Positions 27,648 to 64,000 of a stretch of DNA of 64,000 nucleotides are shown here, piece after piece. The stretch lies in the NCBI RefSeq assembly GCF_964213995.1, contig NC_135825.1:12586001-12650000 (forward strand), written 5' to 3'. Position numbers and translations under genes: made by a program. Positions within the stretch are counted from its first letter, which is position 1. Each line of letters opens with the position of its first letter. The notes under the pieces are model-generated. The model was given only the letters and a program-made list of their open reading frames with translations, had not been told where the DNA came from and did no database searches. This stretch comes from Mustelus asterias. Its lineage: Eukaryota.

Positions 27648-28310
27648 AACAACCCCCCACCGCCATTCCAACCCCCCACCGCCACCCCAACCCCCCACCG
27701 ACACCCCAACCCCCCACCGCCACTCCAACCCCCCCGCCACTCCAACCCCCCACCGCCACTCCAACCCCCCACCGCCACTCCAACCCCCCACCGCCACCCC
27801 AACCCCCCACCGACACCCCAACCCCTCACCGCCACTCCAACCCCCCACCGCCACTCCAACCCCCCCACCGCCACTCCAACCCCCCCACCGCCACTCCAAC
27901 CCCCCACCGCCACTCCAACCCCCCACCGCCACTCCAACCCCCCACCGCCACTCCAACCCCCCACCGCCACCCCAACCCCCCACCGACACCCCAATCCCCC
28001 ACCGCCACTCCAACCTCCCACCGCCACTCCAACCCCCCACTGCCACTCCAACCCCTCACCGCCACTCCAACCTCCCACCGCGACTCCAACCCCCCACCGC
28101 CACTCCAACCCCCCACCGCCACTCCAACCCCCCACCGCCACTCCAACCCCCCCACCGCCACTCCAACCCCCCCACCGCCACACCAACCCCCCACCGCCAC
28201 TCCAACCCCCCCCGCCACTCCAACCCCCCACCGCCACTCCAACCCCCCACCGCCACTCCAACCCCCCACCACCACTCCAACCCCCCACTGCCACTCCAAC
28301 CCCCCACCAG
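27648..28310. repeat. C-rich minisatellite, ~19-bp unit CCGCCACTCCAACCCCCCA, ~35 copies
   Basis: Direct tandem array; explains the Pro-rich and Gly/Trp-rich ORFs. Confidence 0.97.
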
Positions 28311-29964
28311 CTCCCAGCCACCTCCTACCCAAAGAGAGTTCAGGTATGCAATGTTTGTGTCCAAACATGATTGCTTGGGAGAGTTTAACTTTTGAACGGT
28401 TACAAGTGCATATGATTATGGGGCACGGTGGCACAGTGGTTGGCGCTGCTGCCTCACAGCGCCAGGGACCCAGGTTCGATTCCCGGCTTGGGTCACTGTC
28501 TGTGCGGAGTCTGCACTTTGTCCCCATGTCTGCGTGTGTTTCCTTCGGGTGCTCCGGTTTCCTCCCACAGTCCGAAAGACGTGCTGGTTAGGTGCGTTGG
28601 CCGTGCTAAATTCTCCCGCAGTGTACCCGAACAGGCGCCGGAGTGTGGCGACTAGGGGATTTTTAAAGAACAAAGAAAATTATAGCACGGGAACAGACCC
28701 TTCGGCCCTCCGAGCCTGCACCGACCATGCTGCCCGACATGGCACACAGTAACTTCATTGCAGTGTTAATGTAAGCCTACTTGTGACACGAATAATTAAA
28801 CTTTAGGAAAGGAAGGGAAATTTGTTTTCTATATTCCACAAAGTCTTCATGTTGCAGCAGGTGCCACAACCTTGAACCATCCAGTGCCCCTCTCCTGCCA
28901 AGCGAGAAGAGAAGCTGCGGGTCGATTGGCCTGCGGGCATTCACACGACCCTGGGGTCAGGCATGAGGCAAGCAGAAGTCCCAACCCAACAAACCTCTGC
29001 CCCCTTGTGAAGCAGAAGAGGAGAATCTGCCCAGTGTATTTGTATCCTGCATTATAGCCAGTGTATGCTTCCACTCAGTGGGTTCGAGCTCCAAACCTTC
29101 TGCTTATCCAAGCCTGGCCCTCCAGGGCCTTTATGTTCCCCCATTGCTGATTATTTTCATAATAGGCAGTATTACTACCATGAAAGGGCAGTAAATATCT
29201 CATTAGACGGGATGAGGCTCAGGATTGCAAAGGGCAGGGATAAAACTTTGCACTGACTGTAGAACATAAAGGGCTGCACGGTGGCACTGCTGCCTCACAG
29301 CGACAGGGACCCGGGTTCGATTCCTGGCTTGAGTCACTGACTGTGTGAAGTTTGCACATTCTGCTGCGTCTGCGTGGGTTTCCTCCCACACTCCAAAGAT
29401 GTGCGGGTTAGGTGGATTGGCCATGCTAAATTAGCACGGCCAATCCTAGTATCAGGGGGACTAGCTAGGGTAAATGCATGGGGTTATGGGGATAGGGCCT
29501 GGGTTGGATTGTGGTCAGTGCAGACTCGATGGGCCAAATGGCCTCCTTCTGCACTGTAGGATTCTATGATTCTAAAGGCTGAGAGAGATTCCTGGCTCTT
29601 TCCACGAGGTTGTTCTGTCATTAAAACAACATTAACTGCTCCACTGTCATCAGTCCTTTCTGTCAAACATGATTTTCCCCTCAACAAGTCCATGCTGGAA
29701 ATTATCTCGAATATAAATGACTGCATCCCTTCACTTCCCTTTTTAAGCAATCAGTTCAGTTAAAAATTGCTTTTGCTGGTTGCATCAGGGTTAAATATAG
29801 TTCAGCAAGAAGAAAGCTCTGGAATTATTCCATTTGTTTACTTTGCTTTCTTTTCGAACGGGTATATCACACGAGGTGAAAAGGGAAGTCTGGATGGATT
29901 TTCTTTACCCAGGCTCCAATACTTGCAACAGGTCATGCTAAAATAAATGCCACAGCCTCAAGGA

Positions 29965-39121: not shown

Positions 39122-39161
39122 ATGGATTTTTCATTTCATTTTCTCGTGATCTCCTTTGCAG
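39122..39161 (+). CDS. Exon 1 (signal peptide) of CD300/pIgR-like activating receptor
   Basis: ATG 39122 encodes MDFSFHFLVISFA plus G, followed by a perfect donor GTAAGT at 39162 (phase 1). Joins the IgV exon in frame to give the hydrophobic leader MDFSFHFLVISFAVVWA. Confidence 0.75.
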
Positions 39162-42084
39162 GTAAGTAACAAACAATTAATGTGAGTGTGCATAGTGAAA
39201 TGAGAATGGTGTGTGTTAGTGTAAGTTTTAGAAGAATGTTAATTTGTAGCAGATTTTTCGTCTAGAATTCTTCTGGAATTGGGCAGCACAGTGGTTAGCG
39301 CTGCTGCCTCGCAGCGCCAGGTACCCGGTTTCAATTCCAGCCTCAGGTCACTGTCTGTGTGGAGTTTGCACATTCTCCCCGTGTCTGTGTGGGTTTCCTT
39401 CAGGTGCTCCGATTTCCTCCCACACTCCAAAGATGTGCAGTTTGGGTGGGTTGGCCATGCTAAATTGCCTTAGTGTCCCGAGAGGTTAAATGGATTTGCC
39501 ATGGTGAATGTCTGAATTTGCAGGGATAGGGCAGGGGAGGGCCTGGGTGAGACGCTCTGTCAGAGAGTCAGTGCAGAATTGATGGGCCAAATGGCCTCCT
39601 TCTGCACTGTAGGGATTCTATGATTCTAATTTATTGTCTTCATCATAAGTTTGTTAATCTTCCCTAACCAATTTTCCTCTAAGTCCAATACCCCAGGTAC
39701 AGGAGCAAGAATATCCAACACAGTGTGTCCATCAACTATGGCTCAGTGGAGAGACAGTAGCCTCGCTAACCGGGTGGTTGTTGGGTTCAAGCCCCACTCC
39801 AGAGACTTGAGCATGCGCACTATGGTAATGCTTCAGTTTAGTCATCAGGGATCAGACATCCTGGCCGGAATTCTGGGACGGGCGAGGTTCGCAGAACGAC
39901 GTTCTCCATTGGCCTCGGGTGGGATCTTACGATCGGACGGGCGAGGTGGTACAATTCCGGCACCCACCTCCCCGACCAGCTGCACGTGAAAGATTTCACA
40001 GATTTGCTGTGCTCATATTGGCTGTTCTGTTTGTTCTTTAGACTGTAACCGTGACTACACTTTCAGCATATGAGTTGGCTGCAAAGGGTTCAGAGGTCAC
40101 AAAAGGTGCCATGCAAATGCAAGTCTTTCATATCAGTGCACCTGTCTTGTATATTTTATATAAATATTTGTTCAAATAATTGGGTGGCACGGTAGCACGG
40201 TGGTTAGCACTGCTGCTTCACAGCGCCAGGGACCTGGGTTCGATTCTCCGGCTTGGGTCACTGTCTGTGTGGAGTTTGCACATTCTCCTCGTGTCTGCGT
40301 GGGTTTCCTCCGGGTGCTCCGGTTTCCTCCCACAGTCCAAAGATGTGCGGGGTAGGTTGATTGGCCGTGCTAAAATTGCCCCTTAGTGTCCTGAGATGCG
40401 TAGGTTAGAGGGATTAACGGGTAAGTATGTAGGGATATTGGGGTAGGGCCTGGGTGGGATTGAGGTCGGTGCAGACTCGATGGGCCGAATGGCCTCTTTC
40501 TGCACTGTAGGGTTTCTGTGATGAATTGAAGCCTATGAATCCCTGCAGATACTGTTCGGGAGGGCAAATTCCCATTCATGTCATAATCTTTTTAATTGAC
40601 TTTTACCTGTTGCTGCTTCACACTCTGCAGCCTCACTGTGCAAGAATACAAAAAACCTAAATGGCAGTTTTAAAAAACAATGTAATGAAGGCGGTGACCT
40701 CTGCTGAGCCCAGAAATGGATGGAATCATGAGGAACTGTCAATCTTGGCTCACATATGTGACGTTCCTGGCCTGAATATTTCACCAGGCGGGCGTGCGCA
40801 CTTGGTGGGGTCAGAAACAGGCGTGAAACGCATTCCTGGCAGCGGTCGGCCTTGGATCTATTTTAGAAATTGAAGAAGTTTATTTATTTGTGTCACAAGT
40901 AGACTTACATTCACACTGCAATGAAGTTACTGTGAAAATCCCCTAGTCGCCACACTCCGGCGCCTGTTCGGGTACACTGGGGGAGAATTTAGCACGGCCA
41001 ATCCACCCAACTAGGACGTCTTTCGGACTGTGGGAGGAAACCGGAGCACCCGGAGGAAACCCACGCAGACACGGGGAGAACGTGCAGACTCCGCACAGAC
41101 AGTCACCCAAGCCGGGAATCGAACCCGGGTCCCTGGCATTGTGGGACAGCAGTGCTAACCCACTGTGCCACTGTGGCAGACCTTGGGTGTCCCTCTGTGT
41201 GGAGTTTGCATGTTTCTCCCCCGTGTCTGTGTGGGCTTCCTCTGGGGCTGGCCAATTAATGGCCATTTCCGGTGTGAAGCGCACTCTGGGAGAGGCTGAG
41301 TGCTGCCAGGAGGGCGGGCTCCAAGGGAAGCGAGGGTGCGGGCTGGCATTTCCATGTTGCCTCTTCTGGGGAAACGGCTGCTGTTGAACTGTGTCAGGGA
41401 GCCCGCGCCCCATGAAAAATAAATATGTGTTAAAACTATGCCACGCGTGTTTGGGCAGCGCGATCACACACAGAACTCAGTTCCCGGATGCATTTGTTCA
41501 TTTTATCTGAACCCTGACCTTTTCATCCCACCCTGAATCCAGGTTGCCAATTGGCCCACCCGACAGACAATGTAAAATCCCAGTCATAGAATCATAGAAT
41601 CCCTCCAGTGCAAAAGGAGGCCATTCGGCCCATCGAGTCAATTTGTTGTTCAATTATTTCAATTGGCAAAGGCGCAATTCCGTCAGGAAACATCTTCTGG
41701 TGCAATTCTTATGTGTTTCCAGGTCAGGTAGCGCCTGAACTTTATACCTAAAATTTTGGCCCCTGTGAGTAGGTGGGAAGGAAAATTGCTGGCATGTGAA
41801 AGGTTGTTCATGCTTCAATCTTTCATTATTTTACAATTACACAGACTCTGCAGCACAGAAACACTCAGAGGGCTGTTCATCTTTGAAGTATTCTACCTCA
41901 GAATGCTGTTGAGGCCCCCAGTTGCTAAGTGTATTCAAGTATGAACAAAGAGCAAAGAAAAGTACAGCACAGGAAGAGGCCATTTGGCCCTCCAAGCCTG
42001 CACCGATCATGATGCCCTAACTAAACTAAAAAAAAAACCTTCTGCTCTTACTCATTCCGTATCGCTCTATTCCCTTCCTATTGG

Positions 42085-42580
42085 GGCACTCGGGGTGAAT
42101 GGGCTCAAACGTTGTGGGGAAAAAGCAGGATTAGGATATTGTGTCGGACGATCAGCCATGATTTAGATAAGATGGAAGCAGGGAAGTTGTTTCCACTGGC
42201 AGGTGAAACTAGAACTAGGGGGCATAGCCTCAAAATAAAGGGGAAGCAGATTTAGGACTGAGTTGAGGAGGAACTTCTTCACACAAAGGGTTGTGAATCT
42301 GTGGAATTCCCTGCCCAGTGAAGCAGTTGAGGCTACCTCATTGAATGTTTTTAAGGCAAGGATAGATACATTTTTGAACAGTAAAGGAATTAAGGGTTAT
42401 GGTGAGCGGAGCTGAGTCCACAAAAAGATCAGCCATGATCTTATTGAATGGCGGAGCAGGCTCGAGGGGCCAGATGGCCTACTCCTGCTCCTAGTTCTTA
42501 TGTTCTTATGTGATGAATGGCGGAGCAGGCTCGAAGGGCCAAATGGCCTCCTCTTGCTCCTATCTTTTATGTTTCTATGT
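42085..42580 (+). mobile_element. Nested CR1 3' fragments
   Basis: TRGHSLKI / NFFTQRVVNLWN-type sequence and two CR1 3' UTRs. Confidence 0.75.
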
Positions 42581-43915
42581 TATTCATGTACCCATCCAGG
42601 TGCCTCTTAAATGTTGCTAATGCGCCTGCTTCCACCACCACCTCTGGCAGCGCGATCCAGGCACCCACCACTCTCTATGCGAAAAATGTCCCCCGCACAT
42701 CTCCCTTAAACTTTCCCCTCTCACCTTGAACCTGTGCCCCCTTGTAATTGAGATTGAGAGATTCCCGGGCATTAAGCGAATCTGGGAATATGGGGATAGC
42801 TTGGGAAATTGGAGTTGAGGTAGATTATCCAGGATCTTATTGAAAGATGCAGTCTCAAGGGGCTGTATTGCCTTCTCCTGCTCCTATTTCTTATGTTACA
42901 TTCTTAGAGCATGTTAAAAGGTCAACTCAGCTGTTTGCTCTATATCTCCCCTCAAGTTCCCTATCACACATGGCAGGCCAATGTGAAATCTGGCTGCCCC
43001 CCGCCCCCCTCCCCGCCCAGTGATATGTCTATAGCTGAGGCCAGACTTCCACCCTTATCAGGGAGTTAGTCCCATATGCAGGAACATGTCTGGAGTATTG
43101 AGTACAGTACCAGCCACCTCAGCATTAAGAAGTGTTTAGATGGCATTTGCAATGCCAAGGTGTGCAAGGTTATCCATAGAAATCCATAGAAACCCTGCAG
43201 TGCAGAAGGAAGCCACTTGGCTCATCGAGTCTGCACCGACCACAATCCCACCCAGGTCCCATTCTCGCATCCCCACATATTTACCCTGCCAATCACCCTA
43301 ATACTAGGGTCAATTTAGCATGGCCAATCAACCTAACCAGCAAATCTTTGGACTGTGGGACGAAACCAGAACACCCGGAGGAAACCCAGGCAGACACGGG
43401 GAAAACGTGCCAACTCCGCACAGACAGTGACCCAAGCCAGGAATCGAACCTGGGTTCCTGGCGCTGTGAGGCAGCAGTGCTAACCACTGTGCCACAGTGT
43501 CGCCGCAGTAAAAGTAAAGTAAAGTTTATTTATTAGTCACAAGTAAGGCTTACATTAACACTGCAATGAAGTTACTGTGAAATCCCCCTAGTCGCCACAG
43601 TCTGGCAGCTGTTTGTGTCAATGCAACTAACCAGCACATCTTTCAGAATGTGGGAGGAAACCGGAGCACCCGGAGGAAACCCACGCAGACACGGGGAGAA
43701 TGTGCAAACTCCACACAGAAATGACCCAAGCCAGGAATCGAACCCGGGTCCCTGACACTATGAGGCAGTAGTGCTAACCACTGTGGCACAGTGCCACCCA
43801 CATGGACCAAGTGCTGGAAAATGGGATTAAAGTAGTTGGGTGGTTTGTCCTTGACCGGCATTGATGCGATGGGCCAAAGGGCCGTTTTCTGTGCTGTAGA
43901 TTTCTATGACTCTAT

Positions 43916-44042
43916 GGGCGGGATTTTCCAGCCACGCTCCTCTCAAGACCGGAAAATCCTGCCCGAGGTCAATGAACCTTCGCATGGTCCGTGTCCCACC
44001 CACTACGATTCCCGTGGTAGGCGGGATGGGAGAATTCCGCCC
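43916..44042. mobile_element. MITE, PIF/Harbinger-like
   Basis: TIRs GGGCGGGATTTTCC / GGGCGGAATTCTCC; 3-bp TSD TAT. Confidence 0.7.
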
Positions 44043-44069
44043 TATGACGCTATGACCTCATTTATGGAA

Positions 44070-44585
44070 AGAAATTAATGCATTGGAAGTAGTTTGGAGA
44101 AGGTTTACCAGGCTAATACCTGGAATGGGCGCGTTGTCTCATGAGGAAAGGTTGGACAGGCTAGGCTTGTATCCACTAGAGTTTAGAAGACTAAGAGGTG
44201 ACTTGATTGAAACAAATCAGATCCTGAGGGGTATTGACTGGGTGGATGTGGGGAGGGTGTTTCCTCTTGTCAAAGAATCTAGAACTAGGGTCACTGTTTA
44301 AAAATAAGGGGAGATGAAGCAAAATGTTTTCTATCAGAAGATTGTGAGTCTTTAGATCTCTCTTTCTGAAAAGGCGACGGAAGCAGAATCCTTGAATATC
44401 TTTAAGGCAGAAGTGGATAGATTATTGGTACACAAGGGGGTTGGAGGGTAAAAGGTTACCGGGGGTTGACAGGAAGCAGATTTGAGGTTACTATCAAATC
44501 AGCCAGGATCTTATTAAACAGTGTAGCAGACTCAAGGGGCTGAATGGCCTATTCCTGCTGCTTGCTCACATGTTCATAAGTTCAT
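44070..44585 (+). mobile_element. CR1 3' fragment
   Basis: RRFTRLIPGM...LEFRRLRGDLIE. Confidence 0.8.
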
Positions 44586-45210
44586 GGACAGAATTCTCTG
44601 ATTGTGCTGGTCTAAAAGCCGGAAATTCCCGCCCGACTGTCAATGGGATTTCACCCACCCGTTAAAATTCCCGTGGCGGACAGGATGGGAGAATTCCGGC
44701 CTATATGCATGTGGAGAGTTGGCAGGTAATCTGATTGGCTGCCAGCTCTGTAATCCCAGAATGCCATGAGACAGGAGCAGCTAAGACTATAACCGGTCCT
44801 CAAGAAGGGGGTGGGTGTACACTGACTTAAAGGTGAGTCCGGGGATTGGGGGCGGGGGGGATAGGTGCAAGGCCCCAGAGAGGAGGGGGGGTGGGTATCA
44901 TGTTAGAAAGGCCAGGGGGAGAGGCTTAAAAATGAGGGAGGGATTGTCATCTTAGCGGCAGTGCCCCTGATGAGCACAGTGGAACACCCCTCCTCCCCAC
45001 TGTCCCAAAAAAGTACGGGGCTGGCTGACTTTTTTCCGTCTGCCCTGGAGGGCCAAACCTTGTGGTGGAGATGGAGTGTGTGAGACACTTAAGTGGTTGT
45101 TAATTGTCCATGTAAGGCAGCAGAGCAAATGTGCTGCCTGATGCCTCACCACTCCCCACCCCACCCCCACTGTAGGATGGGGTGAATCGGGAGTGGGCGG
45201 GATGGGATGG

Positions 45211-45519
45211 TTTACAAAATAATGGTTGGAATGCGAGTCTTTACAGGTAATCAAGTCTTAAAGGTACAGACAATGTGAGTGGAGAGAGCGTTAAGCACAG
45301 GTTAAAGAGATGTGTATTGTCTCCAGCCGGGACAGTTAGTGAGACTTTGCCAACTCGCATTCCAACCATCATTTTGTAAATTGAGTTTGTGTCGTTATAT
45401 GCCCTGTTTGTGAACAGAACTCCCACTTACCTGACGAAGGAACAGCGCTGTGAAAGCTAGTGGCTTTTGCTACCAAATAAAGCTGCTGGACTTTAACCTG
45501 GTGTTGTGAGACTTCTTAC
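45211..45519. mobile_element. Penelope pLTR fragment with 5' inversion and degenerate hammerhead
   Basis: 45211-45350 is antisense and 45353-45519 is sense to the Penelope 3' region. CUGACGA...GAAAGCUAGUGG at ~45427-45463, with stem II disrupted. Confidence 0.8.
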
Positions 45520-46699
45520 CCTGTTTTGCTAATCAGGTGCTAATCTTGTGGCTGTGAGTTTTAAAAAAATGCTTCCCCCCTCATTCAGATTCACAGATAA
45601 GAGTCAGAAGGAGCCGCAGAATAAATCAGCGCGCTACAGCAAACTGCTCATCCTGTTTGAAGTTTCAGTCAAACCAACAAAGAGAACCACAGCCCACACC
45701 CGACACCACATCAACTGCAGCAGAAAACCACAGCACTTGCATCGTCAGGTCCTCTGTTACCCAGCCTGCTGTGTAATCGAGCAGGGTGTGCATTGGGTCC
45801 TTCCTGCAGTGTGGCCTTCCACTCCAGGCAGTGTCCCTGTTATTTGCTGCGTCGCCTGAAGCAGGCCTGTGAAGCATCATCCTGAATTGAATGATTTTAG
45901 CCCACAGCGAGTGCAAATTGGATAAGATAACATCGACGGTGTGGACCTCGCCGGTCACACAGTCTGCTTTTCTCGCCATATTATAGAACCTAGAATCCCT
46001 ACAGTGCAGAAGGATTCCCTATGGCCCATCGAGTCTGCACCAACCACAATCCCACCCAGCCCCTATCCCCGTAGCCCCACGTATTTACCCTGCTAGTCCC
46101 CCTGACATTAAGTGGCAATTTAGCATGGCCAATCAACATAACCTGCACATCTTTGGACTGTGGGAGGAAACCCACGCAGACACGGGGGATAATGCCCAAA
46201 CTCCACACAGACAGTGACCCAAGCCGGGAATCGAACCTGGGTCCCTAGCACTGTGAGGCAGCAGTGCTAACCACTGTGCCACCGTATTCAATACTGACGA
46301 AGAAAAGAATCCTGGAGGTGCACCACACCGTCACACTGGTGGACGGGACCTGAAAAAGCCAGCAATGATGGGTTTCCAGAGATTTGTTTTTTAAAAGGGT
46401 GCACCAATCTCCAGTTTAAAAAAAGGAACCCTCACCCCCACACACAGAGACCCCGCCCCCCCTATGCACAAAGAGATCCCCCACATGCACATGGGTAAGT
46501 TCCCCCCCCCCCCGCCCCCACCACCCATGGCAACCCTCCCACCTTCACAGACAGGGGAATCACACCCTACAAGGACACTGGGAAACCTGCTCCCCAAGGA
46601 GACCCGCAGAGGAACCCCCCCCTCTCCCCCCCCAACTGTGTACTGCCCCCGGCATCCTGACACTGCCCCTATGGTAAACAGCGGTGCAAAATTCTAGAC

Positions 46700-47230
46700 T
46701 CACAGAATTGTTACACTGCGGAAAGAGGCCATTTGGCCTATCGTGTTTGCACCAGCTCTCCAAACTAGCATCATGACTTAGTCTCATTCCCCTGCCTTTT
46801 CCCCCCGCCCCCCGTACCCCTGCACATTGTTTCTATACCAATAATCACCCAATGCCCTCTCGAATGCCTCGACTGAACCTGTCTCCACCACATTTCCAGG
46901 CAGCGTATTCCAGACCCAAGCCACTCGGCGTGTGGATAGGTTTTTGTCACATCACACTTGCTTCTTTTGCAAATCACTTTAAGTCTGTGCCCTCTCATTC
47001 TTTTACCAGCGGGAACAGTTTCTCCCTGTCTACTCTGGCCAGCCCCCTCATGATTTTGAACATCTCTCTCTTATCAAATCTCCTCTTAGCCTTCTTCTCT
47101 CCAAGGAGAACAGTCCCAACCTCTCCAATGACTCTGAGGTCCAGTTAGTGTCTTGCATAAGTTCAGCATAACCTTGCTCTTGTACTCAATGCCTCTATTA
47201 AGAAAGCCCAGAATACCAGATACTTTCCCT
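46700..47230 (-). mobile_element. Degenerate CR1 3' fragment
   Basis: ILGFLNRGIEYKSK...; RGHRLKVICKRS. Confidence 0.7.
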
Positions 47231-49223
47231 TTCAGCAACTGCTCTTTAGGGTCCTCCTCCTTCACGTATTGTGTCTTGACAGGGCATTGGTGACCAGGGG
47301 CTTCCATTGGATTCCTAGATTCTCCTTCAGGCTGAAGTGTTTTGCCATTACCTTCTGCAGAATGGCCGCCAGGAAACTTTCCCACTTTTGTTGCCTGCTG
47401 TCACGCATATTGGAGGAATTTACAGGCTGTTAACTAACCTGTTTGGCCACGCTCTGAACTTTGCCATCATGTCCTAGAGTGGGACTTGAACCCAAAGTTC
47501 CTGGCCCAGAGGTAGGGATGCTAGCCATTGCATCACAAGACCACCGTCCCTCTTTAAGATCAGGTTATTGAAATCGATAGTATGAGGAAAGATTGTGAGT
47601 GGGTAAGAGAAATAAATGCCCGGTTGGGCATTGCCGATAAGGAGTGCCCACTCACAGTGTAATGGTCTGCCCTTGATACTCCATATCTTAATATCCTAGA
47701 ATCAGAAGGTTGAATTTTATTTCAGAGGCTAATGTCCCACGACCAGGGCTGAAAGTGAGAGGCGAACCTGCTTGGGCTGGTGGCATCCTGGCAATAGCCA
47801 ATTAAATGGCCACCACTGGGGCTGATATCCATAGTAAACCCACTAAAACCGTCGTCCAAACCAGGAAGCCAGCAGCTCAGACGCCTCAACAGCGCCACTA
47901 GTGGCAGTGGCCATTAATGGCGCTGCACCTGGAGGATGAGGGCACATCGCTGGCCATGTGCAAAGACAGGAAAATGGTGCCTGGGCATGCCAGTATCAGG
48001 CTGGCAGGCAGGTCCTGACAGGATCAGTGGGAGGGGGGAGTTCACAGAGGGCAGGCAACAACCCCGGCTACTGGATGGGGGAGGCTCATGGAGTTTCCAA
48101 AAATATGTCCCCACAAGCCAATAGGAGACCACCAGGTTGCTGTGGATCACCTCTCATTTCGGCAGTCTATCCCTGGATGCTGGTAAAATGCCTGTGGAGG
48201 AGGGAAAAGGCCTTTAATTGGCTACTTAAGTAGCTAAACTGGACTCCCAGTTGGCATTGCATGTGCCAACCTTTCTGCCACTGACAAAATGGTCTTTTGG
48301 TGTCAAGGGGTAGGGGAGAGAGTATGGCACAGAGATAGAGAATCAGTCACGACCATATTGAATGGTGGAGCAGGTTAGAGGGGCCGAGTGGCCTACTCAT
48401 GCTGCTATTTTCCATGTTTCTAAAATCATCAGGCATAGGCCCCACAGCATCCTGTGCCATTTTGCCGGCCTCCTTGCTTCCCAGCGCATTGTCAAGGGCG
48501 GGTAAAATTCTAACCATAATATAAGCACAGAAGAAGGCCAACCAGCTGGCTACATTTTACTGATCTGTGTGCAGGGATCCAGAGAGAAAGATCTCCAATT
48601 ACAGATTCCATGAGGCAAACCGTGAGCCATAGGAACTGCAAGAAGCAATACCTTAGACTAGAGTTGGCTGGACTCAGCTCATTGGGAATCTGAACAATGA
48701 GAGTGAGGCACAGATACAATGAAGTTTTTAAAATTTAAACTTATTTTATTAGTGTCGCAAGTAGGCTGACGTTTACACTGCAATGAAGTTACTGTGAAAA
48801 TCCCCAAGTCGCCGCACTCCGGCGCCTGTTCGGGTACACCGAGGGAGAATTTAGCACGGCCAATGCATCCAACCAGCACGTCTTTCGGACTGTGGGAGGA
48901 AAGCAGAGCATCAAGACAGGGGGGAGAACTCCACACAGACAGCGACCCAAGCCAGGAATCGAACCCAGGTCCCTGGCTTTGTGAGGCAGCAGTGCTAACC
49001 ACTGTGCCACCGTGCTGTGGTATGAACTGTCTTTATTTCAGACTAATATTAATTTCTGAGGACGAAAAATCCAGAAGTCCCTCAGGCCGCATCATTAGAA
49101 TGATCAAAATGGGATAGTATGTTTACGAGTCTTAATGCACATTTTTTAAAGTACTCTTTACCCTATTAAACTGTTAGGTTGATTTATGTTTTCTTGTACT
49201 TGTTATGCTTTCACATTGTACAG

Positions 49224-49556
49224 TTGTTTGGGCTGCATCAAATGGACCGGATGCTGTAAATGGAACGGTGGGACAATCAGTCCATATCAAGTGTCGATAC
49301 GACAAATATTACAGCAATTATCAAAAGTACTGGTGCAAAGGTGATGATCAGGAAGACTGTGCTATTGTGGTGCAAACCCACGGCCCAAAGAAGACAAGTA
49401 CTGATGGGAGAATCACCATTGTCGCTGATGATGAAGCAGGAGAATTTACAGTCACAATGGAACAGTTAACACAGAGCGATGAGGGCTTATACTGGTGTGG
49501 AATTGAAAGATTGTTATGGGACCTCCAAAGTCCTGTGGAACTTAAAATCAATGAAG
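49224..49556 (+). CDS. Exon 2: V-set Ig domain, CD300/pIgR/CMRF35-like
   Basis: Acceptor ttgtacag| at 49223; donor GAAG|gtagg at 49557; phase 1-1, 333 nt. Motifs GQSVHIKC, KYWCKG-x5-C (CX7C second disulfide), FTVTMEQL and DEGLYWCG are typical of CD300/pIgR-type V domains. Confidence 0.93.
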
Positions 49557-50184
49557 GTAGGATCTGAATGGTTTTATTAATTGTGTGCATCTGTAAGCTG
49601 TATAGTTTTATATTGCTTTCAGTACAATTTAGGATATGTTTTTCAACATTTCCAAAGTGGTTTTCAGTGGGAAGTTAGAATTCTGTTAAGGGTAAACCAG
49701 CAGAATGATGCAAAATAACAAATTGGGCTATCTGACCACGTGTCACGGTTGCCCCTCGCTGACTAAAATACTGGGGTTGGGGAGGGGAGCCCACCTACCC
49801 AGCAGAAGATGGCTGACTGGCTATTAATAGACTAAAGGATGAGAATTCCACCCCTCCCTTGGGGAGCTGCTGCCCACTTGTACTTCAGGAGGAGGTTGGA
49901 ACCGGTGAGAGTTTGGGGATCTTGCAGGCACCCGCAGAGGCGCAAGGGGGTTGGAGGGGTGTGAGGGTGGACGGATGGTGTTTGAGAGTCCATGGGAGGG
50001 AAGGAGGGCTGGAGGGGGTGATGGGCGGGGGGGAGGGGGGGTGGAGAAAAACCTTGGGGACCCTATGATGGGCCCAGGAGGGCAAGTTAATGAGGGAGGG
50101 CCCCTGCCCTCCACCAGCTCATACAGGAAAACCTGTTGGCCGCCTGGCCTTAGGTCTTTTCCCTGCCACTGGTTCAATCCTAGT

Positions 50185-50690
50185 CATAGAGTCGTAGAGT
50201 CATAGAGGTTTACAGCATGGAAACAGGCCCTTCGGCCCAAATTGTCCATGCCGCACTTTCTTTTTTAAAACCCCTAAGCTAATCCCAATTGCCCGCATTT
50301 GGCCCATATCCCTCTAAACCCATCGTACCCATGTGACTGTCTAAATGCTTTTTAAAAGACAAAATTGTACCCGCCTCTACTACTACCTCTGGCAGCTTGT
50401 TCCAGTCACTCACCATCCTCTGTGTGAAAGAATTGCCCCTCTGGACACTTTTGTATCTCTCCCCTCTCCCCTTAAACCTATCTCCTCTAGTTTTAGACTC
50501 CCCTACCTTTGGGAAAAGATATTGACTATCTGGCTGATCTGTGCCCCTCATTATTTTATAGACCTCTATAAGATCACCCCTCAGCCTCCTACGCTCCAGA
50601 GAAAAAAGTCCCAGTCTATCCAGCCTCTCCTTATAACTCAATCCATCAAGTCCCGGTAGCATCCTAGTAAATCTTTTCTGCATCCTGGTA
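50185..50690 (-). mobile_element. CR1 3' fragment
   Basis: QKRFTRMLPGL...RLRGDLIEVYKIM. Confidence 0.88.
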
Positions 50691-51751
50691 AATCCCTCCA
50701 GGGTAAGATCTTAAGTGGACACCAATTGCCCACCAAAGGGCCACAGTTGACCCAAAGGCACTAACACTACCCTACCATTGGTAAAATTGCACTGGGGACA
50801 GGGATGGGCAGTGTTGTAATATGCCTTTATTGGGCAGCAGCATGACATCACTAGAAGGGAAGTGTGTCATGGAATCTAGTCTTTCCTGACTTGTCACAAT
50901 GGATTCCATGACAGATGTGGTGAGCCAGCTAAACACCCATTGACTTTGCAGGAAGCAGAAGATCCCACCAGTGGGCGGGGCCAGGCAACTATGGTCTTAG
51001 TTTCACTTTTCCCTCTGAGCAGAGCACAGAACACATGTCTGATGTCTTCAGGTTTTCTACCTTTGTCCAAATATTCTCACTTGCCTCGTCTCAATAAATG
51101 AACCCACAATGTATTTATACAATCCCTTCTGAACGATCAGTGCCTGGATCATTATAACATAACAGACATGGAGGCGGCATGTACACCCCCCACTGCATTG
51201 AAGATACCATTCCCCCCACCCCAACCATCACACCCTCTGGCAAGCGAGCATTAAATTCAACCCAAAGATGTATAATTTTAGTACTAATATACCCATGTAA
51301 TTTTTCACGTTTTTAAATCACAAATTTAGGGAGGCATGGTGGCACAGTGGTTAGCACTGCTGCCTCACAGCACCAGAGACCTGGGTTCAATTCCGGCCTC
51401 GGGTCACTGTCTGTGTGGAGTTTGCATGTTCTCCCTGTGTCTGCGTGGGTTTCCTCCGGGTGCTCCAGTTTCCTCCCACAGTCCAAAGATGTGCGGGTTA
51501 GGTGGATTGGCCATGCTAAATTGACCCTTAGTGTCAGGGGAATGGACAGGATAAATATGTGGGATTACAGGAAGAGGGCCTGGGTGGGATTGTGGTCGGT
51601 GCAGACTCGATGGGCCAAATGGCCTTCTTCTGCACTGTAGGGATTCTATCATTCTATGAAATTGCAAATTTATCTATGATGGTTTAATCAGATGTGTAAC
51701 GCAACTTGGCAGTGCAATCTAACAACAATGAGGTTATATAATTTTTAACAG

Positions 51752-51800
51752 GTCCCAAAGTACTTCTTGCAATCTCTCCATCTGACAAGGAAATTCAAAG
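51752..51800 (+). CDS. Exon 3: short stalk (GPKVLLAISPSDKEIQ)
   Basis: Acceptor atttttaacag| and donor AAG|gtaaat. Phase 1 in and phase 2 out, exactly what bridges the IgV exon to the TM exon without a stop. Confidence 0.7.
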
Positions 51801-52353
51801 GTAAATGTCATGTCTGTTTAAAAAGGCCCAATCTGAACAATTATTCTGTCTCTACGCAATTGTGACTGCACTAAAGAAGGAACACCGAGGAGATTGATGA
51901 GGATGTGGGCCAGGACTGAAGAATGTGCAGTCATGAAGAAAGATTGGGTAGGCCGGCACTGTTTCCCTGGGAACAAAGGAGGCAAAGGGAAGATATAACT
52001 GAGACGTATAAAGTTATGAGGAGCCAGACAGACGGATGAAAAGGATTTATTTCCTTTAGCAGAGAGGCCAAAAAATAAGAGGGCATAGATTCAAAGTAAT
52101 TGGTAGAATTATTCAAGGGGAGGTGAGGAATGATTGTGGGGGTGAATTGACCTCTTGGGAGGATGGTCGAGGCAGAAATTCTCATTGCATCTTAAAAATA
52201 TAGCTGGAAATGGATTTGAAATGGCCTAGCTTACAGGGCTATGGACCAAGAGTTGGAATGTGGCATTAGGCTGAGAACACTCATTTTCGGGGCAGGCACA
52301 GACATGCCGGGCTGAATGGCCTCCTTCTGTTCCATTTTTCTGTGCAAAAATTG

Positions 52354-52680
52354 TGTAATGTCCCATTGACTGTGTTATGAGAATGCAATGGCTTCAATCA
52401 GGCCATTGAGGTTGGCCTATTGGAATACGAGCTCCCTGATTAAGGGCCCCTAAGTGAATTTGATTTTGTTTATTTGGTTGGAAGCAAAAAGATGTCCCTG
52501 ATTAAGGGCCAAATTGATGGGCCGACCAGGGAGCCTCTTGCCTTGTATTTAACCAGGCGTGTCAGTTCCTCAGGGGGTCCTAGGGTAGACTGCTGACTGA
52601 AAGCACTCTGTATGCCGTTGTCAGACTTGTAAATAAAGGGATTTTAGTGAAGGGACTTCTGCCTCTGATGTCTTATTACA
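52354..52680 (+). mobile_element. Possible solo LTR
   Basis: TGTAAT...ATTACA termini with internal AATAAA; no TSD seen. Confidence 0.45.
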
Positions 52681-53522
52681 GAGAGGTATTAAATTGTTTT
52701 TCTGGCAAGGTGCAGGCTGCCTTGAGAGTAGGATTTCAATATGATGAAGACAAATGCATTTTGGACACTCATGCCACAACTGTAAGCAGATATTTGTGAC
52801 TCTGCAATAATGTAATATGTGCAACATTGAACTGGCAGCTAGTTCTACATCTCCTGCTAAAGTCAATGAAAATAAAAGTCAGGAGAGATGGCACTATCAG
52901 TTGGCTGCCTCTTGCATTCTAATGCCAAATAGTTCAAATCCAACCCAGACCCAGAAGTGAGTGCCCTGTTACACCATGGATATATTTTTGTCATTCTTTA
53001 ACCACCAAAATCCACAACCCATTGCATTTGGAAGAATTTCCAGGACACTTATTGTTTTGTTCATTCTTTTATGGGATGTGGTCATCCCTGGCAAGCCCAG
53101 CATTTGTTGTCCATCCCTAATTACCCTTGGACCAGGTCAGTTCAGAGGGCAGTTAGCGGTCAACCACATTGCTGTGGATCTGGAGTCACATGTAGGCCAG
53201 ACTGGGTAAGGATGGCAGATTTCCTTCCCTAAACGATAATAGTGAACCAAATGGTTTTTTTTGCAACCATCAATGATTGTTTCATGGTCACCATTGCTAA
53301 GACCAGCTTTCAATTCCAGAATTTATTAATTGAATTGTGATTCCTTCCTTCGCTTTACCGATGATCAAAGGTAGGCTGATTGATCAGGTTGGATTTGTCC
53401 TGCTTTTTGTGTACAGGAGATACCTGGGCAATTTTCCACATGACTGGGTAGATGTCAGTGTTGTAGCTGCACTGGAACATCTTGGCAAGGCAATTTTGAT
53501 TTGATTTGATTTATTATTGTCA

Positions 53523-54197
53523 CATAAGAACATAAGAACATAAGAAATAGGAGCAGGAGTAGGCCATCTAGCCCCTCGAGCCTGCCCCGCCATTCAATAA
53601 GATCATGGCTGATCTGAAGTGGATCAGTTCCACTTACCCGCCTGATCCCCATAACCCCTAATTCCCTTACCGATCAGGAATCCATCTGTCCGTGATTTAA
53701 ACATATTCAACGAGGTAGCCTCCACCACTTCAGTGGGCAGAGAATTCCAGAGATTCACCACCCTCTGAGAGAAGAAGTTCCTCCTCAACTCTGTCCTAAA
53801 CTGACCCCCCTTTATTTTGAGGCTGTGCCCTCTAGTTCTAGCTTCCTTTCTAAGTGGAAAGAATCTCTCCACCTCTACCCTATCCAGCCCCTTCCTTATC
53901 TTATACGTCTCTATAAGATCCCCCCTCAGCCTTCTAAATTCCAACGAGTACAAACCCAATCTGCTCAGTCTCTCCTCATAATCAACATCCCTCATCTCCG
54001 GTATCAACCTGGTGAACCTTCTCTGCACTCCCTCCAAGGCCAATATATCCTTCCGCAAATAAGGGGACCAATACTGCACACAGTATTCCAGCTATGGCCT
54101 CACCAATGCCCTGTACAGATGCAGCAAGACATCTCTGCTTTTATATTCTATCCCCCTTGCGATATAGGCCAACATCCCATTTGCCTTCTTGATCACA
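53523..54197 (-). mobile_element. Young CR1 3' fragment
   Basis: ORF 53624-54079, (CATAAGAA)n tail; nearly identical to 63563-64000. Confidence 0.92.
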
Positions 54198-54199
54198 TG

Positions 54200-54665
54200 T
54201 ATTAGTATACAGTGAAAAGTATTGTTTCTTGCACGCGATACAGACAAGGTATATCGTTCATAGAGAAGGAAAGGAGAGAGTGCAGAATGTAGTGTTAGTC
54301 ATCGCTAAGGTGTAGAGAAAGATCAACTTCATGCGAGGTAGGTCCATTCAAAAGTTTGATGGCAGCAGGGAAGAAGCTGTTCTTGAGTCGGTTGGTACGT
54401 GACCTCAGACTTTTGTATCTTTTTCCTGATGGAAGAAGGTGGAAGAGAGAATGTCCGGGGTACTTAATTATGCTGGCTGCTTTTCCGAGGCAGCGGCAAG
54501 TGTAGATAGTGTCAGTGGGTGGAAGGCTGGTTTGCGTGATGGATTGGGCTACATTCACGACCCTTGTCTTGCGGTCTTGGGCAGAGCTGGAGTCATACCA
54601 AGCTGTGATACAACCAGAAAGAATGCTTTCTATGATGCATCTGTAGAAGTTGGTGAGAGTTGGAG
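54200..54665 (-). mobile_element. Rex1/Babar-type 3' fragment
   Basis: FYRCIIESILSGCITAWY...RLKNSFFP; same family as 16815-17370. Confidence 0.8.
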
Positions 54666-54669
54666 AGAA

Positions 54670-55140
54670 TCTTGGAGCCTTCAGTACTACTGCTGAAATA
54701 TTGTCAGGACCCATTTCCTTTGCAGTATTCAGTGCCCTCAGCCGTTTCTTGATACCATGTGGAGTGAATCGAATTGGTTGAAGACTGACATCTGAGATGC
54801 TGGAGACCTCCAGAGCAGGCTGAGATGGATCTTCCACTCAGTACTTCTGGCTGAAGATTATGACAGATGTTTCAGCCTTATCCTTTTGGTGCTCCCAATA
54901 TTGAGGTTGAGGATATGAGAGTCCTCCAGTGCGTTGTTTAATTGTCCACCACCATTCACGGCTGGATGTGGCAGGGCTGCAGAGCTCAGATCTGATCCAT
55001 TGGTTGTGGAATTGCTTAGCTTTGTCTATTGCTGGCTGCTTATGTTGTTTGGAACGCGAGTAGTCCTGTTTGGTAGCTTCACCAGGTCGGCAGTTCATTT
55101 TTAGGTATGTCTGGTGTTTCTCCTGGCATGTCCTGTTGCA
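54670..55140 (-). mobile_element. Non-LTR retrotransposon ORF2 fragment (host of the nested CR1 and Rex1 insertions)
   Basis: LCSPATSSREWWWTIKQ and KEMGPDNISAVVLK pre-RT motifs; clade not resolved. Confidence 0.65.
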
Positions 55141-55204
55141 TTGAACCCCTCTTATTGATCTGTCTGCTGAGTGAAATAGCTCCGTCAACATCTGTGGAGA
55201 GAAG

Positions 55205-55330
55205 GGACAGGATTTTCCAGCCAGATCATTGAGATTGTCTGGTCCAGCTGAAAGACAGTGGATTTTTGGCTGAGCTACCAAGTCCCCTGCGGCAGTGGGT
55301 TCAGCTTGATAAGGCCAGAAAATCCCGGCC
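55205..55330. mobile_element. MITE, PIF/Harbinger-like
   Basis: Imperfect 16-bp TIRs; 3-bp TSD AAG. Confidence 0.6.
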
Positions 55331-55703
55331 AAGATAACCTTTCAGTTCTGATGCAGAGTTTGCATCTGAGACGTTGCACTCAGTTGCTCTTTCCATCACT
55401 GCTGACTGACCTGTTTCCACAGCTTCTGTTTTTGCATCAACATCTTTGCAGAAGGAGATTGTCAGAAGCTGATGTTTTTCTGTCATCACATTACCATATC
55501 TAGTGAGAAAAGGGAACTGGGTATTTGCCACTTCATCGCCCCCTAGGCACAGGCTAGTCCCTGAACGTGAAGCACATTCCAACTCGATACTTCCTATGCA
55601 CTCAGATAATGGATAAACTATCACAGGTCAAAGTGAGTGCAGTTCAGCAATTTGCCAGATGGACCAGAAGCATAGAAGCAGCAAAGACCACAATATTCCA
55701 CCA

Positions 55704-55978
55704 GAGGCACGGTGGCACAGTGGTTAGCACTGCTGCCTCACAGCGCCAGGGACTCGGGTTCGATTCCTGTCTTGGGTCACTGTCTGTGTGGAATCTGCCT
55801 TTGCCTGCATGGGTTTCCTCCCACAGTCCAAAAGACGTGCTGGATAGATGCATCGGCCATGCTAAATTCTCCCTCAGTGTACCCGAACAGGCGCCAAAGT
55901 GTGGCGACTAGGGGATTTTCACAGTAACTTCATTGCAGTGTTAATGTAAGCCTACTTGTGACTCTGATAACTTTAACT
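55704..55978 (+). mobile_element. HE1-related V-SINE with alternative 3' tail (type B), representative copy
   Basis: HE1 head and core, but tail ...gtggcgactaggggattttcacagtaacttcattgcagtgttaatgtaagcctacttgtgac. Copies at ~7915, 12221, 13340, 18495, 24182, 28420, 31433, 32315, 32935, 40878, 43510, 48735, 58799, 59762 and 61636. Confidence 0.85.
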
Positions 55979-56069
55979 TGAGCGTAACCAAATGATTCAC
56001 ATGTTGAAGTTAACTCCATAGATTCAGGAATCAATTTTGATGAAACCATTTTGCCTCCTATCTTCATAG

Positions 56070-56169
56070 GCAGAAGAATTACCTGTACTATTTCATATGG
56101 AGTGTTTTACGTTGGATCTTCCTCGCCATTCTCCTCCTTTGGGCCATTTTAGCCAAACTGAAAATGTAA
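56070..56169 (+). CDS. Exon 4: transmembrane helix with intramembrane Arg and a ~4-residue tail
   Basis: Acceptor cctcctatcttcatag| (phase 2). Encodes RQKNYLYYFIWSVLRWIFLAILLLWAILAKLKM*, with Arg codon CGT at 56110-56112 and TAA at 56167-56169. Donor GTAAGT follows at 56175. Confidence 0.82.
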
Positions 56170-56840
56170 AACCGGTAAGTTGTTCTGTGCATTTAGGCAC
56201 AAGCTATTTAGAAAGGTTGTTTATAATCTGCTCATTATAAATACTTCAGAAAGGATAGCAGGATAAGAACAAAATGGCCAGTGTTTTACAGCCCGTCCCA
56301 CTTGACGGGGTCCGACCAAACTATAAAATTATGAGAGGCACAGATAGGGTTGACACAGAGTGGTAGGTGTCCGGAATGCGCTGCCTGGATTGGTGGTGGA
56401 GGCAGATACGATAGGGGTGTTTAAAGGAACTTTTAGATAAGCACATGAATATGCAAGTAATAGAGGGATTTCTGTGGGAGGAAAACAGAGCACATGGAGG
56501 AAACCCACACAGATATCGGGAGAACATGCAAACTTCATGCAGTCACCCAAGGCCAGAATTGAACCCGGGTCCCTGGCACTGTGAGGCAGCAGTGCTAACC
56601 ACTGTGCCACCGTGCCACTCTGGGATCAAGCCCGGGAAGTGGTGCAATGACTCATCCTGTCAGCTTGGATCCTATTTGATTGGGCCCAAGATGGGATGCA
56701 AAGTCTTGTTTGTCCCACATGTGGGGGGACCATGATTTGACTTAATTTGAATTGGCTTTTCTGATTAGAAATAAAGTACTGAAGGACTTCATTATCAGCT
56801 GCTTTAGCTGGGGTCTCTGAATTTGACTATGCGTGCAGAT

Positions 56841-62090: not shown

Positions 62091-62679
62091 GCCATGCAAA
62101 ATTCTCCCTCAGTGTACCCGGACAGGTGCCGGAGTGTGGCGACCAGGAGATTTTCACAGCAACTTCGTTCCAGTGTTAATGCAAACTGTCTTGTGGCACA
62201 GATAAATAAACTTAAAACTTATTGCCTGTTTCTTCAATAAAATCATCGCAGGTGGAGAAATTATCTCAGTTTGCCATGTGACACGATTACCAGGTTGCAC
62301 AGCGAAATCATGAACAACAACGCTACTCCTCACATGGTCACCTGTCCCTGACTGTTCAGTCACTCCTATTAACCCATTCACCTTTTGTCACTATTAACAA
62401 CCTTCATGCCTTATTGGCACCATTAACACTCCGCTTTGCCTTAAGTCCATGACCTTGGTCAATATTTCCTTTGCCCCAGTTGTTTAAGGGTGCCACAGTG
62501 GCTCAGTGGTTAGCACTGCTGCCTCACAGCGCCAGTAAAACCTATTTACTTTCCTCATGCCTGCTGAAGCAGCAGGTTAATTTTCTGCATCTCAGGTACA
62601 AGGACACCCAAGTCTCACTGAACACCAACATTTAATACTTTGTCGCCAGTCAAAAAATATTCATTTCTCTATCCTTCTT

Positions 62680-64000
62680 TCTGAAAGAAATGTCAGAGGT
62701 AATAGCAGATGCGTTAGTGGTTGTTTATCAAAATTCGTTGGATTCTGGGGTAGTGCCGGCGGATTGGAAAACGGCTAATGTTACGCCGCTGTTTAAAAAA
62801 GGAAATAGACAAAAGGCGGGTAACTACAGGCCGGTTAGCTTAACGTCTGTAGTTGGGAAAATGCTGGAATCCATCATTAAAGAAGAAATAGCAGGCCATC
62901 TGGATAAGAATGGTTCGATTAAGCAGACGCAGCATGGATTCATGAGGGGAAAGTCGTGCTTGATGAACTTGTTGGATTTTTACGAAGATGTGACTAGTGC
63001 GGTTGACGGAGGGGAACCGGTGGTTGCGGTGTTTTTGGATTTCCTAAAGGCGTTTGATAAGGTGCCTCACAAAAGGTTGCTGAAGAAGATTGGGTCACAC
63101 GGAGTTGGGGGTAGGGTGTTAGCGTGGATTGGGGATTGGCTATCCGACAGGAAGCAGAGAGTCAGAATAAATGGGGGCTTTTCTGGTTGACGGATGGTAA
63201 CTAGTGGTGTGCCGCAGGGATCGGTACTGGGGCCTCAACTATTTACCATTTATATAGACGATCTGGAGGAGGGGACTGAGTGTAGGGTAACAAAGTTTGC
63301 AGACGACACAAAGATAAGTGGAAAAGTGAATCGTGTGGAGGGCGTAGAAGGTCTGCAGAGGGATTTGGACAGGCTGAGTGAGTGGGCGAGGATCTGGCAG
63401 ATGGAGTATAACGTTAACAAATGTGAGGTTATTCACTTTGGAGGAAATAATAGCAAATTGGATTATTATCTAAAAGGAAAAAAATTACAACATGCTACTG
63501 TGCAAAGGGACCTGGGGGTCCTTGTGCATGAGATGCAAAAACCCAGTCTGCAGGTGCAACAGGTGATCAAGAAGGCAAATGGGATGTTGGCCTATATCGC
63601 AAGGGGGATAGAATATAAAAGCAGAGATGTCTTGCTGCATCTGTACAGGGCATTGGTGAGGCCGCAGCTGGAATACTGTGTGCAGTATTGGTCCCCTTAT
63701 TTGCGGAAGGATATATTGGCCTTGGAGGGAGTGCAGAGAAGGTTCACCAGGTTGATACCAGAGATGAGGGGTGTTGATTATGAGGAGAGACTGAGCAGAT
63801 TGGGTTTGTACTCGTTGGAATTTAGAAGGCTGAGGGGGGATCTTATAGAGACGTATAAGATAATGAAGGGGCTGGATAGGGTAGAGGTGGAGAGATTCTT
63901 TCCACTTAGAAAGGAAGCTAGAACTAGAGGGCACAGCCTCAAAATAAAGGGGGGTCAGTTTAGGACAGAGTTGAGGAGGAACTTCTTCTCTCAGAGGGTG
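62680..64000 (+). mobile_element. CR1 LINE RT region running off the window
   Basis: NYRPVSLTS, QHGF, FLDFLKAFDKV, SGVPQGS, KFADDTK; a single TGA at 63188-63190 where Trp is expected. Confidence 0.95.

Follow-up and report, generated by a model that had tools for sequence, protein, structure and literature searches.

A 64,000-nt stretch of a chromosome of the shark Mustelus asterias (the window) contains four short exons that can be joined into a putative receptor with a single V domain and an arginine inside its transmembrane (TM) segment. This raises the question of whether the exons form a real gene, to which receptor family such a gene would belong, and which signaling adaptor its arginine would engage. 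Joined, the exons (Table 1) form a coding sequence of 40 + 333 + 49 + 100 = 522 nt, which translates without internal stops into 173 amino acids ending in KLKM*, with AG acceptors and GT donors at the exon borders and phases 1/1/2. RefSeq protein XP_078098259.1 ('CMRF35-like molecule 2') is identical over all 173 residues. The four-exon model put forward in the preliminary description is therefore borne out by splice sites, translation and annotation. Its term 'complete' suits the coding sequence but probably not the transcript, given the donor GT at 56175; the position of that donor, 5 nt after the stop, makes a non-coding fifth exon 3' of the stop likely. That the gene was called invisible to an open-reading-frame track reflects nothing beyond splicing.

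Table 1. Features of the receptor gene (positions within the window)
Feature	Position	Strand	Description
Exon 1, coding part	39122-39161	+	ATG with G at -3 and +4; most of signal peptide; phase-1 GT donor
Exon 2	49224-49556	+	Leader end and IgV domain, C37-C105, extra C51-x7-C59 pair, N-glycosylation sequon N26
Exon 3	51752-51800	+	Stalk of 16 aa; phase 1 in, 2 out; agrees with RefSeq protein
Exon 4	56070-56169	+	Juxtamembrane segment, TM helix ~F149-A169, tail of 4 residues, stop
Codon of intramembrane Arg155, in W-x-x-x-R-W	56110-56112	+	
GTAAGT splice donor	56175-56180	+	5 nt past stop codon

The junction 39161/49224, which had been proposed for checking, is found spliced in a 337-nt public contig of sequencing run X1, where exon 1 is joined directly to exon 2. 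This contig, which comes from a different organism, differs at 6 letters over 49221-49482 and has a loose end of 74 nt; the 5' UTR likely extends upstream as far as ~39085. Among the four runs compared over 49040-49800, X1 gave the spliced junction, X11 intron-spanning pieces, X9 a single exon piece plus a short unrelated match, and X10 nothing; an RNA run was absent among the runs listed in our search. Exons 3 and 4 lie outside 49040-49800, and junctions 49556/51752 and 51800/56070, unseen in these reads, are supported by the RefSeq model together with the co-linear counterparts. Two of three junctions are thus without read support, as might be expected if the exon chain were due to chance or wrong assembly; we nevertheless rejected that explanation as extremely unlikely, because the RefSeq protein is identical, co-linear counterparts are present in 16 named chondrichthyan species, and one junction is spliced.

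The gene belongs to a dense group of relatives: genome-wide, 74 of 76 matches to its V domain fall at 11.88-12.98 Mb of the same chromosome (C25). This cluster holds 17 TM exons with Arg, 7 with an uncharged TM and 5 VTYAT(L/V) motifs, and appears from this content to be a large modular multigene cluster with activating and ITIM-bearing forms, as described for MDIRs (modular domain immune-type receptors) in cartilaginous fish. One such receptor from clearnose skate, ABC86795.1, aligns with the shark protein at 53% identity over 98% of the query, and when it was compared by tblastn with 1.06 Mb of the cluster, the best of 64 matches was this gene (135 bits vs 102 for the next). From accession order, ABC86795.1 is probably MDIR1, since MDIR2 is the next accession, ABC86796.1; MDIR1 is said to have been described (by Cannon et al. 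in 2006) with a positively charged TM residue. The shark gene is likely the orthologue or counterpart of MDIR1. Both proteins have a single V domain, a short stalk, a W-x-x-x-R-W TM and a minimal tail, the shark stalk being longer by 9 residues. MDIR2-4 correspond to ABC86796/97/99, and the MDIRs form a multigene family of activating and inhibitory receptors resembling CD300, TREM, FCAR and pIgR (PMC3031540). The literature searched contained no adaptor or ligand assay for the shark receptor or for ABC86795.1. The gene is therefore already known as an annotated gene with a published skate counterpart in a known receptor family.

The exon 2 product matches the Pfam V-set (1.4e-18), and among single-domain PDB entries the V domain matches CD300lf best (73 bits, 1.5e-19), with CD300c at 67 bits, CD300a at 64, pIgR domain 4 at 56, NKp44 at 53 and TREM2 at 34. 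Cysteines C37, C51, C59 and C105 are invariant in 21/21 aligned proteins. The FG-loop residue D113 is conserved among elasmobranchs (10 of 11), which is suggestive at most for lipid binding by the V domain. The extra C-x7-C pair and the pairing of activating with ITIM forms are shared with the mammalian CD300 family; unlike activating mammalian CD300s, which carry Lys or Glu in the TM, the shark receptor has an Arg, apparently in the outer third. Use of FcR-gamma has already been reported for some mammalian CD300s. The V domains of pIgR/FCAMR/FCMR and TREM/NKp44 are related as well, whereas the shark receptor differs from these proteins in being single-domain and in having a TM without Lys (TREM and NKp44 have a central TM Lys and DAP12 as partner).

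The position of the cluster, flanked by GNAI3 and a GNAT-type gene and by AHCYL1-like and AMPD genes, does not correspond, by the markers tested, to that of any of these families. Human CD300 genes lie in the NHERF1/OTOP2/RAB37 block at 17q25. Of the genome's matches to two of these marker families, 0 of 3 for EBP50_C (NHERF) and 0 of 3 for otopetrin fell on C25; they lay on other contigs, one EBP50_C match being on contig C885, possibly unplaced. We therefore rejected CD300 orthology by position, as the locus lies between GNAI3 and AMPD, apart from the CD300-region markers tested. The earlier label 'CD300-like ectodomain' accordingly fits the V domain but not the locus. The pIgR/FCAMR/FCMR locus lies beside the IL10 cluster, and the TREM locus between NFYA and FOXP4. 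The shark chromosome carries an IL10-family exon at 19.9 Mb, NFYA at 9.78 Mb and a FOXP gene at 1.9 Mb, so that the cluster (11.9-13.0 Mb) is 7.2 Mb from the IL10-family exon and adjoins neither NFYA nor FOXP.

The intramembrane Arg claimed initially is confirmed as R155, and the W-x-x-x-R-W motif around it is kept in 18/18 TM-bearing counterparts (sharks, rays, one chimaera). All 18 end 17-18 residues past the Arg, and we therefore rejected the idea that the stop truncates a formerly longer tail. Exons with this TM motif number 17 in the surrounding 1-Mb cluster vs 0 in the control, so that the Arg is not peculiar to this gene and represents the family's standard short-tail module. For this reason, together with the existing annotation and the skate counterpart deposited in GenBank as an MDIR, the novelty implied by the preliminary description did not hold up. 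Among 11 elasmobranchs, mean pairwise identity is 70% for the TM, 60% for the V domain and 39% for the stalk, the least conserved part. A profile of the TM (33 columns, a weak test for bony vertebrates) gave 15 matches at E <= 0.001 among 1.84 billion representatives, one of them this protein, and the 10 looked up were all sharks or rays; the same profile had no match in the PDB, and a region search for the TM outside cartilaginous fish returned the query alone (1/9 candidates).

In the best hydropathy window of 19 or 21 residues R155 falls at position 6-7, and across counterparts the Arg lies at 6-9, varying with window length. In many cluster paralogues a charged residue precedes the Arg by three positions and 18-21 uncharged residues follow it, which places the Arg close to the helix's outer end. 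AlphaFold predicts a helix over residues 136-172 (pLDDT 89-90 over 151-170), in a model built from a 4-sequence alignment with mean pLDDT 53.8, whose V domain was not good enough for fold searching. W151, F158, L162 and W165 equal R155 in invariance and share its helix face; the direction of the conservation moment deviates by 16 degrees from the Arg face (permutation p = 0.013, 13 counterparts).

Candidate partners are encoded in the same genome. An FcR-gamma-like TM exon is present on C275 and a CD3-zeta-like one on C17 (TM exons were examined), and the distance from R155 to the first cytoplasmic charge (15 residues) compares with 16 from the Asp to the first such charge in both shark adaptors. 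A genome search for the DAP10 family gave two weak matches, neither with a recognisable adaptor exon, and an ITAM search found nothing, known ITAM genes being missed as well. When the receptor TM (residues 138-173) was modelled in complex with a pair of FcR-gamma TM segments from the shark exon, the prediction scored 0.05 vs a mark of 0.34, which is evidence neither way. These data are best read as an activating-type receptor whose Arg suits FcR-gamma/CD3-zeta, and coupling to these adaptors is the most likely predicted wiring, because of the Arg chemistry, its depth, the conserved helix face and the presence of both adaptors. To this extent the earlier proposal of an activating-type receptor with an FcR-gamma-type Arg stands, as a best reading but not as a novelty. 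The leukocyte receptor complex (LRC) proteins that couple to FcR-gamma through Arg (FcalphaRI, GPVI, LILRA, OSCAR and NKp46) have C2-set ectodomains, unlike the V-set domain of the shark protein, whose TM is also Trp-rich and has its Arg at ~6-7 rather than 3. A type I TM with Arg instead of Lys and a short tail free of tyrosine motifs are common to both, a likeness that is likely convergent.

The shark gene is real and encodes a short-tailed receptor with one V domain. In the reading that we consider probable, it is likely the MDIR1 orthologue, its R155 is predicted to dock an FcR-gamma (or CD3-zeta) dimer, and it has a likely inhibitory ITIM twin ~20 kb downstream. Arg155 would dock on the paired Asp residues of the dimer, and without the adaptor the receptor would not reach the cell surface. 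A ligand bound by the V domain would then cluster the adaptor ITAMs and recruit Syk/ZAP-70 in leukocytes, and the ITIM twin would damp the same response via SHP phosphatases. Membrane-lipid ligands have precedent among CD300 and TREM receptors, and by that analogy the most likely class of ligand would be lipids of the membrane, for instance phosphatidylserine exposed by dying cells or microbes.

The adaptor assignment has to be weighed against mammalian precedent. In mammalian type I receptors Arg pairs with FcR-gamma and Lys with DAP12, and the adaptor Asp lies at TM position 6 in FcR-gamma and 9 in DAP12, with the FcalphaRI Arg at position 3 (PMC1440944). By the window measure R155 (6-7) is deeper than the latter and falls between the FcR-gamma and DAP12 positions, which counts against the best reading. 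Pairing of the same receptor with DAP12 or DAP10 instead would be in keeping with the range of 6-9 across counterparts and windows, which nears the DAP12 Asp, and with the use of Arg by NKG2D for DAP10 and by rodent Ly49 for DAP12; these are both type II proteins, however, a Lys-to-Arg change in KIR lowers DAP12 assembly to 15% (PMC1440944), and the charge pattern of the paralogues puts the Arg near the outer helix end. We regard this pairing as distinctly unlikely.

The mammalian rule is unsafe in fish: catfish IpLITR 2.6b binds FcR-gamma-L whether its TM carries Lys, Arg or Ala (PMC4810170). With this precedent, an FcR-gamma-type adaptor might be bound through the W151/F158/L162/W165 face, the Arg setting depth or specificity while being dispensable for assembly. 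The shared invariance of that face, and a surrounding constraint greater than the mammalian one-residue mechanism needs (PMC1440944), speak for such an arrangement, which we still hold to be unlikely, since an Arg invariant across three otherwise divergent TM types of the cluster is hard to explain if dispensable. Finally, the helix might serve homo- or hetero-assembly without any ITAM adaptor (the ITIM neighbour being one conceivable partner), or a decoy or secreted V domain might be the main product: an isoform without TM (154 aa) is annotated in Cetorhinus, and read-through of the shark V exon would stop after 3 codons, giving a secreted form. Against this, activating receptors are typically built with Arg and a tail of 3-4 residues, the TM is more constrained than the V domain, and both adaptors are available, making this explanation very unlikely.

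The ITIM-bearing neighbour, with an uncharged TM and the motifs VTYATV and TEYSTV, has the V exon closest to that of this gene (49%), and in Chiloscyllium punctatum the activating and ITIM types are numbered as consecutive genes on a contig of 130,944 nt; from its sequence it is likely the inhibitory twin. In a tree of cluster V domains built with 4 outgroup rows (an earlier tree was disturbed by long branches), the activating group's V domains did not form one clade (2 changes). Paired receptors tend to turn over fast. More speculatively, and with only a small chance of being right, the two genes may be a single-copy activating/inhibitory pair whose V domains have stayed separate since before the shark-ray split; such persistence in an otherwise fast-expanding cluster would point to a fixed, conserved ligand. 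Within the same conjecture, the cluster, since it sits in the GNAI3-AMPD block on a chromosome with TREM and pIgR marker genes, may be the surviving ancestral CD300/TREM/pIgR locus, Arg with FcR-gamma being the original wiring and Lys with DAP12 a later one.

The interest of the gene is modest, residing in the stable pair and the locus, the gene itself being ordinary. It offers a stable single-copy test case for the wiring of innate activating receptors in the oldest living jawed vertebrates, and its apparently long-lived pairing with an ITIM twin, unusual for paired receptors, brings a ligand search within practical reach. Should FcR-gamma be what the Arg recruits, a single adaptor would serve the cluster's 17 Arg-TM exons, and the assembly rule of mammalian LRC receptors would already be used in cartilaginous fish, on an unrelated ectodomain of CD300/pIgR type.

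The exons of the study gene (window 39122..56169, forward strand; 40, 333, 49 and 100 nt) translate in phases 1/1/2 into a 173-aa single-V receptor, with AG and GT flanking every junction, the stop codon at 56167-56169 and the transmembrane (TM) arginine, R155, encoded at 56110-56112, reproducing exactly the four-exon chain proposed in the preliminary description. The gene is real and already annotated: the RefSeq model XP_078098259.1 (‘CMRF35-like molecule 2’, Mustelus asterias) is identical to its protein. A 337-nt contig from X1, a public sequencing run from another organism (organism A) that is presumed to be RNA, matches window 49221-49482 apart from 6 letters, and exon 1 makes up its loose end; an actual molecule therefore carries the proposed junction 39161/49224 in spliced form. 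Five nucleotides past the stop lies a GTAAGT donor, which points to a fifth, non-coding exon; decay is not expected for a stop that near the last junction. Read-through of the V exon (window 49557-49567) meets a stop after three codons and would yield a V domain in secreted form. The Cetorhinus annotation includes an isoform that lacks the TM.

Exon 2 encodes a V-set domain with an extra C-x7-C pair. Among single-domain solved structures it scores highest with CD300lf (73 bits), CD300c (67) and CD300a (64), followed by pIgR domains, NKp44 (53) and TREM2 (34), which bears out the CD300-like ectodomain described earlier; sequence alone is considered insufficient to place fish receptors in CD300 or TREM (NILT preprint 10.1101/2022.04.21.489081, excerpt). 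A profile search with the study protein returned 27 proteins, including the clearnose-skate ‘modular domain immune-type receptor’ (MDIR) ABC86795.1, 53% identical over 98% of the query length, and tblastn of that skate protein against 1.06 Mb of the cluster placed the study gene top of 64 (135 bits versus 102). The skate counterpart already has a published family name: MDIRs are a multigene activating and inhibitory family akin to CD300, TREM, FCAR and pIgR, with MDIR2, 3 and 4 deposited as ABC86796, 97 and 99 (PMC3031540, excerpt). From those accessions we infer that ABC86795 is MDIR1. In 2006, Cannon et al. reportedly described MDIR1 as having a positively charged residue in its TM. Within the open literature (subscription papers, including the primary MDIR paper, lie outside this scope), we found no paper giving any MDIR an adaptor, tracing the study gene and its ITIM-type neighbour across cartilaginous fish, or placing the cluster; the excerpt of PMC6795676 does not deal with MDIRs.

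All 18 TM-bearing counterparts, which come from 16 species (sharks, rays and one chimaera) and one further contig, carry the motif W-x-x-x-R-W (excluded were P0002 and P0028, models without such a TM; P0033, partial; P0030, fused; and P0032, a read-through isoform). All 18 proteins end 17–18 residues beyond the arginine; the short tail is therefore ancient, and a recent truncation is ruled out. Mean pairwise identity among 11 elasmobranchs is 70% for the TM, 60% for the V domain and 39% for the stalk, and W151, R155, W156, F158, L162 and W165 are invariant in 13 counterparts. The conservation moment of the TM points 16 degrees off the arginine (permutation p = 0.013, indicative only for 13 related sequences). 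A TM profile run against 1.84 billion representatives returned 15 proteins; the ten looked up were all sharks or rays, which says nothing on absence in bony vertebrates. A scan of C25:11,936,001-13,000,000 (the two 200-kb flanks lying outside it) found 17 Arg-TM exons, versus 0 in the reversed sequence; they fall into three divergent types, with W, R, W and L as their only common residues. The Arg-TM module is common to the whole family.

Because its 4-residue tail is unable to signal alone, the study receptor would signal via an adaptor; that it might have none is highly improbable. Coupling of arginine to FcR-gamma is a known design: in type I receptors Arg directs assembly with FcR-gamma and Lys with DAP12, and swapping the two strongly cuts assembly (PMC1440944, excerpt). 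Arg-dependent coupling to FcR-gamma or zeta is probably the arrangement here, and DAP12 or DAP10 as the adaptor is quite unlikely. Exons for FcR-gamma-like and CD3-zeta-like adaptors, each with Cys and Asp kept, are found in the same genome, and their Asp lies 16 residues from the first cytoplasmic charge; the study arginine lies 15 residues from its own. By hydropathy window the arginine occupies TM position 6–7, whereas that of FcalphaRI is at position 3, with Asp at 6 in FcR-gamma and 9 in DAP12 (PMC1440944, excerpt). Simple transfer of the Arg/Lys rule to a shark is doubtful because catfish IpLITR 2.6b binds FcR-gamma-L regardless of the residue at that TM place (PMC4810170, excerpt), which favors an FcR-gamma coupling that depends on the face of the TM helix, a reading we consider unlikely beside the Arg-dependent one. 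Of 11 elasmobranchs, 10 retain D113 in the FG loop of the V domain. Our best guess at the ligand class of this domain would be lipid, by analogy with CD300 and TREM.

Genome-wide, 74 of 76 V-exon matches fall inside C25:11.88-12.98 Mb. The cluster (G000:C25:11936001-13000000) comprises ∼69 V exons, many V-C2 repeats and several near-identical tandem units of 36–37 kb; among the exons found, those with an Arg-TM outnumber those with an uncharged TM (at least 7). Its flanking genes resemble the human 1p13 block, near which the CD300-like gene TMIGD3 offers a possible lead; chicken chromosome 26 presumably holds both that block and pIgR/IL10. Chicken TREMs are also on chromosome 26 (PMC4788293, excerpt). 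An open-literature search on TMIGD3 gave nothing relevant among the entries listed. Of the genome matches to CD300-region markers, none lies on C25 (NHERF-family 0/3, otopetrin 0/3). A lone related V exon ∼160 kb from the IL10-family exon occupies a candidate pIgR/FCAMR position. The window itself also holds dozens of SINE-like copies of 300–350 nt, a tandem repeat that is likely non-coding, and reverse-transcriptase-like frames that we take, by motif, to be Penelope-like and CR1-like.

Coordinates of features in the window, the cluster and the wider genome
Feature	Location	Strand	Remark
Reverse-transcriptase-like frames	window 8788-9633, 53525-54665, 62636-64000		retrotransposon fragments
Low-complexity tandem repeat	window 27510-28590		long Pro/Thr-rich open frames, both strands
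ITIM neighbor	G000:C25:12661718-12676971 (L038, L039)	same as study gene	single V, uncharged TM
Exon-like frame	L149:1433-1750	+	ITIM/ITSM-like tyrosine motifs; 13.00-Mb cluster edge
GNAI3 and GNAT-type gene	C25 11.75-11.80 Mb		left flank of cluster
AMPD and weak AHCY-family match	C25 13.05-13.19 Mb		right flank of cluster
FOXP gene	C25 1.9 Mb		
NFYA	C25 9.78 Mb		
IL10-family exon	C25 19.86 Mb		
Lone related V exon	G000:C25:20024596-20024883		
FcR-gamma-like adaptor TM exon	L033:1507-1599	−	contig C275
CD3-zeta-like adaptor TM exon	L032:1507-1605	−	contig C17

The closest relative of the study V exon (49%) belongs to the ITIM neighbor, which starts ∼20 kb past the study-gene stop and carries the ITIM-like motifs VTYATV and TEYSTV in its tail. 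Counterparts of this neighbor, of ∼253 aa, occur in many sharks and rays; both types are found in Heptranchias (XP_067863717 and XP_067863719) and, on one 130,944-nt contig, in Chiloscyllium punctatum (chiPu_0020301 and chiPu_0020302). The 11 ITIM-type domains come together as one clade in V-domain trees (support 98/95 in the first tree and 94 in the second) apart from the elasmobranch activating domains, and the two genes therefore group by type rather than by species; a single clade of activating V domains was not recovered in these trees. The V domains of a chimaera Arg-TM gene (P0016, P0017) and a similar contig take their position with the ITIM type (96/90; 91) and score equally against both shark genes, so that the two V types may have separated only after the chimaera lineage branched off, or an exon exchange may have taken place.
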